A stretch of DNA of 64,000 bases from assembly GCF_054482525.1 (NCBI RefSeq), contig NZ_CM137006.1. One strand, given 5' to 3'. The notes under the pieces are model-generated. The model did no database searches. It saw only the letters and a list, made by a program, of their open reading frames with translations, and was not told the origin of the DNA. Shown one piece after another: positions 10,120 to 10,494 of this stretch. The position numbers and the translations under genes are program-made. How positions within the stretch are numbered: position 1 is the first letter of the stretch; each line of letters opens with the position of its first letter.

Positions 10120-10494
10120 TTACTCTAATGGTTTTATTAATTGTAAATTTTTAAATGTCATGCTTAATAAGCCATCAGAAAAATAAAGAAAAAATTTATA
10201 TATCCTTTTGTTTTTTAATTTCTTTATATACCCATTACTTATATTACCTGACTTGTGATTATCGATTAACTCAGCAGAATCCATAGCGAACACTAAATCA
10301 TCTACATCAGAAAATTCAACTATCATTTTTTCCCTAATGTTCTCATTTTTATAAATGTCAATAAATAACGTCATGTTAAAATGAGATTCTTTGAATGTCG
10401 TTTTTACTTCTAACAAAACCCCATCATGCCAGTCAATTGAACTCACAATGTCAAAATCGCTCATTATATAATCTCCATTATCCGTTTTAATCAT
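10120..10494 (-). CDS. Putative Rhs immunity protein (124 aa)
   Basis: ATG at 10494-10492 overlaps the rhs TGA stop (ATGA coupling); small, AT-rich, non-hydrophobic protein directly 3' of the Rhs toxin tip. The track start at 10527 is an in-frame upstream extension. Confidence 0.55.

Follow-up and report, generated by a model that had tools for sequence, protein, structure and literature searches.

PIM7 is the immunity protein of PT7, a DNase polymorphic toxin of Bacillus cereus (PDB 8owu; Nachmias et al., 10.1101/2021.10.19.465003). According to this preprint, PIM7 neutralizes PT7 toxicity in vivo, and in the crystal it covers the catalytic pocket of PT7, with D17, at the tip of the loop between helix alpha1 and strand betaA, contacting the catalytic residues (10.1101/2021.10.19.465003). 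Another immunity family, Imm50 (PF15594), has been found beside Rhs toxins that bear an Ntox24 domain or an HNH/EndoVII-type one (Tox-HHH, Tox-EHHH) (Zhang et al. 2012, PMC3482391), and a Salmonella survey linked it to Rhs-Tox-HNH-EHHH effectors (PMC10469887). Zhang et al. (2012, PMC3482391) also list Tox-WTIP, a class of toxins with RxxR and Wx[ST]IP motifs, as pore forming and with no known immunity. In Staphylococcus aureus, the toxin EsxX, which bears a glycine-zipper membrane segment, is encoded with a soluble cytoplasmic factor, the heterodimer ExiAB, which binds this zipper; two membrane proteins, ExiCD, complement the immunity that it confers (PMC12258717). In the literature on Tox-WTIP, the PCN033 Rhs, Rhs-3CT, and Imm50, no characterization of the toxin tip or of the open reading frame (ORF) described below was found; a toxic control named "Rhs-3CT of PCN033" (PMC10434152) may or may not be the present tip.

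The window analyzed here, a 64,000-nt stretch of contig NZ_CM137006.1 (RefSeq assembly GCF_054482525.1), contains an E. coli rhsE-type locus between ansP/vgrG and ydcC (ISAs1/H-repeat)-yddH-nhoA-narZ, in which a small ORF follows a full-length rhs gene. The tip of the Rhs protein consists of two modules, a 65-aa Cys/His-rich domain (CHD) and, after it, a Tox-WTIP tail. The features of the locus, in window coordinates, are the following.

10491 to 14645, minus strand: full-length rhs gene, 1,384 aa, with the CHD-WTIP tip fused in frame; the product is called "RHS element core protein" where identical loci are annotated.
10875 to 10904, minus strand: end of the Rhs core, a ten-residue PxxxxDPxGL demarcation motif after which the tip begins; the NCBIfam RHS core models end here.
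10671 to 10865, minus strand: Rhs tip module 1, the CHD (Rhs residues 1261 to 1325), unannotated and recurrent upstream of genes of the ORF family.
10494 to 10613, minus strand: Rhs tip module 2, the hydrophobic Tox-WTIP tail (Rhs residues 1345 to 1384), Pfam PF15654.
10491 to 10493, minus strand: TGA stop codon of rhs.
10465 to 10494, minus strand: ten-codon N-terminal extension of the ORF, probably an untranslated spacer; open in the window and in locus L002, closed in loci L004 and L005.
10473 to 10476, minus strand: GGAG Shine-Dalgarno sequence, 8 nt 5' of the ATG at 10464, read from the sequence.
10120 to 10464, minus strand: immunity-like gene as best delimited, 114 aa and a stop codon; its product is identical to WP_001279013.1 of RefSeq ("hypothetical protein").
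10053 to 10084, minus strand: terminator-like hairpin with a 14-bp stem and a T-rich tail, 36 nt past the ORF stop, from a consensus scan.

The locus resembles the rhs main/orphan locus of Salmonella Typhimurium (PMC7043789), with a GC-rich core, the PxxxxDPxGL motif, and an AT-rich tip and immunity cassette; unlike in classical Rhs modules, the tip and immunity families of the window are themselves uncharacterized. The GC content is ∼64% in the Rhs core, 43% in the tip, and 27% in the ORF, in agreement with the AT richness reported for the latter in the preliminary description. The ORF is on the same strand as rhs and follows the rhs stop after a gap of 26 nt (or overlaps it by 4 nt if the ATG at 10494 is used), that is, it has the immediate downstream position, shared strand, and compositionally distinct cassette expected of an Rhs immunity gene. 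Cotranscription of rhs and the ORF, with loose coupling, is likely, and the hairpin at 10084 to 10053 is the probable end of the rhs-immunity transcript; the consensus scan for terminators returned 2 sites against 0.7 expected. A promoter for the ORF inside the tip was considered and rejected: a 10/12 match is present at 10490 to 10463, but promoter-like sites are no more common than in shuffled sequences.

Several other features of the neighborhood were recorded. A transposase gene of the ISAs1 family (H-repeat, ydcC type), the usual companion of Rhs in E. coli, is located 345 nt downstream of the ORF (8638 to 9774, minus strand), and in strain cq9 a second full rhs follows the ISAs1-family transposase gene. 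The rhs gene and the ORF differ from those of strain 19KM1776 at 17 of 4,526 nt. Compared with the same strain, whose locus is otherwise nearly identical, the vgrG gene directly upstream of rhs (14712 to 16820, minus strand) contains a nonsense change, CAG to TAG at 15047 (Q592*), with loss of the C-terminal 111 residues. The source strain may thus be hampered in delivering this Rhs, even as it retains the immunity gene. Two ORFs of 396 and 240 codons run antisense to the GC-rich core of rhs, on the plus strand (10896 to 12086 and 12171 to 12893); these are most likely compositional artifacts, not genes.

The start codon of the ORF bears on how its expression is tied to that of the toxin. An ATG at 10494 to 10492 overlaps the rhs TGA exactly as the preliminary description stated: the minus strand reads ...ACT CCA TGA TTA AAA..., with TGA at 10493 to 10491. 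The 124-codon frame that it reported also exists, ending at the stop at 10122 to 10120, but the likely product has 114 aa and starts at the ATG at 10464. The further claim, that this ATGA marks translational coupling, is not supported, given that the overlapping start is neither conserved nor favored by the stops in L004 and L005, the annotation, and the Shine-Dalgarno sequence. Translation of a 124-aa protein from the ATG at 10494 by strict termination-reinitiation is unlikely, even though the overlap is real, neither the window nor L002 has a stop in the frame, and the longer form is used by some gene callers and by UniProt (A0AAN3M6D7, 124 aa). The NCBI pipeline PGAP takes the second in-frame ATG (10464 to 10462), yielding WP_001279013.1 in RefSeq loci identical to the window. 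GGAG (10476 to 10473) is at the optimal distance from this second ATG, with a spacing of 8 nt, whereas the first, which is inside the Rhs coding sequence, has no such element; purine-rich equivalents (GGAAGG, GGAA) occupy the matching place in L004, L005, and L002. The toxin gene ends with TAG in L004 and with TAA in L005, and in both loci the frame upstream of the MNDFD/MSDFD start is blocked by stop codons. In L002, where the extension frame is open, 5 of its 10 residues are identical to those of the window, and the conserved "NG" codons fall on the Shine-Dalgarno sequence. At seven further locus types of the family, the immunity ATG is separated from the toxin stop by 17 to 27 nt (six loci) or by 148 nt (L029), and, apart from the window and L002, an overlapping start was found only in the Xanthomonas oryzae locus. 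The modeled fold described below begins at residue 3 of the 114-aa form, which also counts against the longer one. The ATG at 10464, with a product of 114 aa, is thus most likely the real start and is better supported than the ATG at 10494. An ATGA overlap says little by itself because only an A before the TGA is needed, and here it is real but probably incidental, not a functional initiation site.

The ORF is a real gene under purifying selection. Its Nei-Gojobori dN/dS is 0.119 in comparison with L002, 0.114 with L004, and 0.251 with L005, and the possibility of a chance AT-rich frame was ruled out by these ratios, the existence of homologs, and a confidently modeled fold. The product has a pI of 5.3 and no signal-peptide-like N terminus. 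With a maximum Kyte-Doolittle 19-residue mean of 0.81 and no hydrophobic segment, it is not predicted to be a membrane protein, in line with the preliminary description. A word-indexed search detected only close relatives (≥63% identity) in E. coli, Serratia, and metagenomes, and a narrower alignment of the ORF recovered only 4 genome loci. A profile search of 1.84 billion cluster representatives with a hidden Markov model (HMM), by comparison, retrieved 123 proteins at an E value of ≤1e-3, nearly all of them full length and 100 to 135 aa long. In the 116-sequence alignment that was used to analyze conservation and for modeling, H13, D14, and G73 are invariant and W12, R44, N69, and G98 are nearly so, which gives the family signature WHDG ... 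EL.DN..AGNISNGY ... YL.DG. None of the Pfam, NCBIfam, PHROGs, or PADLOC models matches the window protein or any family member; the best hits, DUF6981 and SASP (E values of 0.07 to 0.09), were treated as noise. A search of the PDB sequences with the family profile yielded nothing at an E value of ≤10. Judging by these searches, the ORF belongs to a broad family of ∼110-aa proteins that is outside every curated database.

An AlphaFold2 model of the product reached a pLDDT of only 51 with a shallow, 9-sequence alignment; only the 116-sequence alignment gave a confident model, with a pLDDT of 93.2 and a pTM of 0.84. In this model, a helix (residues 3 to 9) is followed by four strands, a second helix (63 to 68), and four more strands. 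The model superposes on PIM7 (8owu, chains D/E), and PIM7 and a Neisseria protein of unknown role are its only strong fold matches. The predicted fold of the ORF product is that of PIM7, and the loop with H13 and D14, whose side chains are the only invariant ones of the family, would be the topological equivalent of the alpha1-betaA loop of PIM7. The two proteins nevertheless share only 9% sequence identity, with no similarity at the HMM level, and their partners differ: PT7 is LXG/T7SS associated, whereas the partner of the ORF is an Rhs/T6SS tip of unrelated sequence, composed of a Cys/His-rich domain and a membrane tail. The structural neighbors of the model in AFDB50 are members of the ORF family itself, a few of which, including A0A1G6KVG4 of Paraburkholderia, were named "Immunity protein 50" by the submitter. 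Imm50 and the ORF family do have in common that they are small, mostly beta, immunity-type proteins. However, the Pfam Imm50 model matched neither the window protein nor this Paraburkholderia homolog (P0053) at an E value of ≤10, and it matched 0 of the 116 family members at ≤0.1, so that the ORF family is, at best, a distant and uncurated sister of Imm50.

In the tip of the toxin, the last 40 Rhs residues match positions 40 to 79 of the 79-position Tox-WTIP model (PF15654; E value, 4.3e-13), and the first half of the model is replaced in the window tip by the CHD and a linker. The tail contains a GxxxGxG stretch, RVIR (RxxR), and WWSIP (Wx[ST]IP), with a peak 19-residue Kyte-Doolittle mean of 1.32; the tip accordingly has the HMM match, both motifs, and the membrane helices that characterize the Tox-WTIP class. 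The CHD, in which 23 columns are invariant across 12 diverse sequences, conserves four Cys, three His, and two Glu residues; its sequence pattern opens with a 12-letter stretch and continues as ...RHLHWECK...GE.G..SHG...AP..K.CA..GF. It has no match in Pfam, NCBIfam, or, in a profile search at an E value of ≤10, the PDB sequences, and PHROGs and PADLOC likewise yielded no meaningful hit. The two modules are separable: some CHDs are followed by unrelated tails, glycine rich or other, and some WTIP tails are preceded by unrelated N-terminal parts. The CHD recurs, with unrelated C-terminal tails, in Enterobacteriaceae, Xanthomonas, Paraburkholderia, and many metagenome contigs. Most of the tails of CHD toxins (L031 to L071 and L006 to L029) end in [V/I/L/T/A]-P, for example, NVVTP, NVAIP, GFLPIP, IIILP, or AVLAP, and this terminal motif is common to WTIP-type, glycine-zipper, and proline-rich tails. 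The conserved Cys, His, and Glu residues, along with the nuclease partners of the closest immunity folds, suggest that the CHD could be a zinc-stabilized, metal-dependent enzyme, which we regard as a lead rather than a result.

Two HMMs, one of the CHD and one of the ORF family, were built and used to scan the six-frame ORFs of all retrieved loci. The CHD was found directly upstream of a family member in E. coli, in metagenome orphan arrays (L002 and L003), in Xanthomonas oryzae (L006 to L008), in L009, in Citrobacter youngae (L011), in a VgrG-Rhs fusion of Paraburkholderia (L012, L015, and L016), in another VgrG-Rhs fusion (L017 to L019), and in L028 and L029. An exact-pattern scan of metagenomes with a degenerate CHD DNA motif produced 41 loci, all confirmed by the CHD HMM: a family ORF is directly downstream in 36, the contig ends in 4, and the CHD is broken by an insertion in 1. 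Thus, wherever the CHD is intact and the downstream DNA is readable, the pair is present in 36 of 36 metagenome loci, in addition to at least seven further locus types, the latter representing five genera. Twelve paired loci have non-WTIP tails, three of which (L051, L060, and L066) are proline rich and not hydrophobic. Conversely, in the two WTIP toxins without a CHD that were examined, other genes come next: L010 has DUF6714, and L026 has the gene of a 190-aa protein that is unrelated. Because the CHD is always paired and WTIP-only toxins have other neighbors, the ORF family appears, from gene neighborhoods, to track the CHD and not WTIP, whatever the tail. Covariation across Rhs loci, proposed earlier as a check on the immunity assignment, is seen as a Spearman correlation of 0.79 between the pairwise identities of CHD and ORF, computed over 21 nonindependent pairs. 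The lack of such a conserved pair in other genomes, which had been named as evidence against the assignment, was not encountered; the pair is kept across species and in orphan modules.

Some loci depart from the common arrangement. Stand-alone homologs with 28 to 32% identity are present in metagenome-assembled genomes (MAGs) of Acidovorax (L013, 3007 to 3330) and Rhodoferax (L014, about 3013 to 3339), with no toxin gene nearby; both are flanked by a tusA-like gene on one side and galU on the other, with cysM and a NUDIX gene also upstream in L013 and valS also downstream. In L020, a family member follows an unrelated 177-aa protein. The stand-alone members may be orphan immunity genes or a sign of another role. 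The genes found after the CHD-less Tox-WTIP toxins, namely, two tandem DUF6714 genes in L010 (1931 to 2936) and the gene of the 190-aa protein, which has a hydrophobic N terminus, in L026 (2033 to 2602), are candidate immunity genes for other WTIP-tailed toxins. In L029, a 34-codon Cys/Gly-rich mini-ORF (626 to 730) ending in ...ACAITP is located between the CHD toxin and the immunity-family gene and looks like a spare or remnant tail segment. In L070 (CHD at 2664 to 2702, minus strand) and its twin L033, at a contig edge, an orphan CHD is cut near codon H47 by foreign, GC-rich sequence, and the 2.5 kb after the interrupted CHD contain no ORF of the immunity family, as if an insertion or a rearrangement had occurred within the tip.

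Among 5,426 complete E. coli genomes, the ORF is present in 403, always on the chromosome, and the tip in 401, in one copy each. In most strains, the cassette of CHD-WTIP tip and ORF is a displaced orphan, as in classical rhs orphans: it follows another full-length rhs, which has its own tip and immunity gene, and is next to an ISAs1/H-repeat transposase gene and a vgrG. In the orphan modules that were inspected (L021 and L022), the tip fragment is a pseudogene and the pair of tip and ORF is still carried. Most of the 403 ORF copies (285 in the 95 to 99% identity band, judged from sampled rows) have a 1-bp deletion, and the truncated, 99-aa form accounts for 295 database members. The single disrupted ORF among the inspected copies is the orphan of APEC O78 (L021), which stops after 46 codons and lies behind a defunct tip fragment. 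Among the best 60 of the 403 hits, every copy whose tip is part of a full-length rhs has an ORF segment of in-frame length, and two records of off-frame length that were inspected (L023 and L024) have a frameshift in rhs and an intact ORF. This pattern, which comes from a sample and not a census of the 403, fits selection that keeps the ORF while the toxin can be made.

Taken with the position of the gene, from which alone its immunity function had originally been proposed, the conservation of the pair, purifying selection, and the PIM7-like predicted fold argue that the ORF probably encodes a small, acidic, soluble, cytoplasmic protein that is the cognate immunity protein of the Rhs C-terminal tip, likely 114 aa long and translated with its own Shine-Dalgarno sequence from the rhs transcript. 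The original assignment of the ORF as the cognate gene of the tip is thus well supported, with the amendment, besides that of the start codon, that the partner tracked is the CHD and not the Tox-WTIP tail. The protein would neutralize the toxin by binding the CHD, with the W12-H13-D14-G15 loop, which joins helix 1 to strand 1 and hardly varies in the family, probably inserting into the conserved His/Glu face of that domain. The absence of an export signal would place neutralization in the cytoplasm or on the cytoplasmic side of the membrane, where the protein would shield the producing cell until the toxin is exported and its siblings once the toxin has been delivered. The tails, which are interchangeable (WTIP, glycine zipper, and proline rich), would be accessories that serve to anchor the toxin in the membrane or to let it enter. 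The analogy with the binding mode of PIM7 comes from the fold, PT7 having no detectable sequence similarity to the CHD. Moreover, between E. coli and C. youngae the CHD is 92% identical and the ORF, which evolves much faster, only 46%; this is unusual and counts against the conserved CHD face as the interface. A more specific version of this scheme, in which the CHD is a new toxin module (possibly a zinc-stabilized His/Glu enzyme), the ORF family its PIM7-like immunity, and WTIP an interchangeable tail rather than the lethal part, is plausible, but we stop somewhat short of favoring it.

The assignment of the tail to the Tox-WTIP class also speaks against a soluble immunity protein, in that immunity to pore formers is usually provided by membrane proteins, and, since most tails are hydrophobic, the ORF protein could bind the tail. 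One way to accommodate the hydrophobic tail would be for the ORF protein to act in the cytoplasm as a "holdase," sequestering the WTIP/glycine-zipper helix and blocking its insertion into the producer membrane before export. Soluble cytoplasmic immunity to a membrane-depolarizing toxin has a precedent in ExiAB/EsxX (PMC12258717), which resembles the present pair in that a soluble cytoplasmic factor is encoded with a toxin bearing a glycine-zipper segment; the GxxxGxG of the window tail, in a class predicted to be pore forming, would be the corresponding target. The parallel is incomplete because the ORF encodes a single small protein that tracks a soluble Cys/His domain, with no adjacent membrane immunity gene, and because a factor of the ExiAB kind would co-occur only with its toxin, whereas the ORF persists in orphan and stand-alone settings. 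Most CHD toxins do end in a hydrophobic, glycine-rich segment, and tail identity correlates with ORF identity (Spearman, 0.75), but the motifs that are invariant in the ORF family face tails that are unrelated in sequence, including the three proline-rich, nonhydrophobic ones. Add to this that WTIP tails without a CHD have different next genes in both cases examined, and sequestration of the tail helix appears quite unlikely, more so than the 124-aa start discussed above.

Another possibility is that the ORF product is not an immunity protein at all but a passenger of the cassette, for example, a loading chaperone or adaptor, a regulator, or an RNA- or DNA-binding protein. The T6SS chaperones and adaptors Eag/DUF1795, DUF4123, and DUF2169 bind N-terminal regions of effectors and are encoded upstream of them, unlike the ORF. 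The family members outside toxin loci, that is, the homologs among housekeeping genes in Comamonadaceae MAGs and the member in L020, do count against immunity as the sole role, and an Rhs immunity protein of EHEC is reported to have been repurposed for sRNA regulation (PMC7618764). Nevertheless, the fold leads to an immunity protein and a Neisseria protein of unknown role, not to any of these functions, and a gene that adjoins one toxin domain and persists in orphan modules of tip and immunity shows the pattern that is classic for immunity, which makes a passenger role very improbable. Cognate immunity to the Rhs tip thus accounts best for the ORF.

The pair is very probably an object of an ordinary kind, an Rhs toxin-immunity pair, of which both protein families are uncurated. 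An immunity gene beside an Rhs toxin is expected, and the assignment will be of use mainly to specialists. The locus also offers a concrete case in which the textbook ATGA signature of coupling is probably incidental. The database label of the toxin as pore-forming Tox-WTIP covers only its last 40 residues, and the immunity gene appears to track an unannotated domain and not WTIP, which changes the choice of the first experiment. The analysis provides a putative function and a predicted fold for a "hypothetical protein" that about 7% of the complete E. coli genomes encode, and the same putative assignment extends to its family, which comprises at least 123 sequence clusters and is outside the curated databases.
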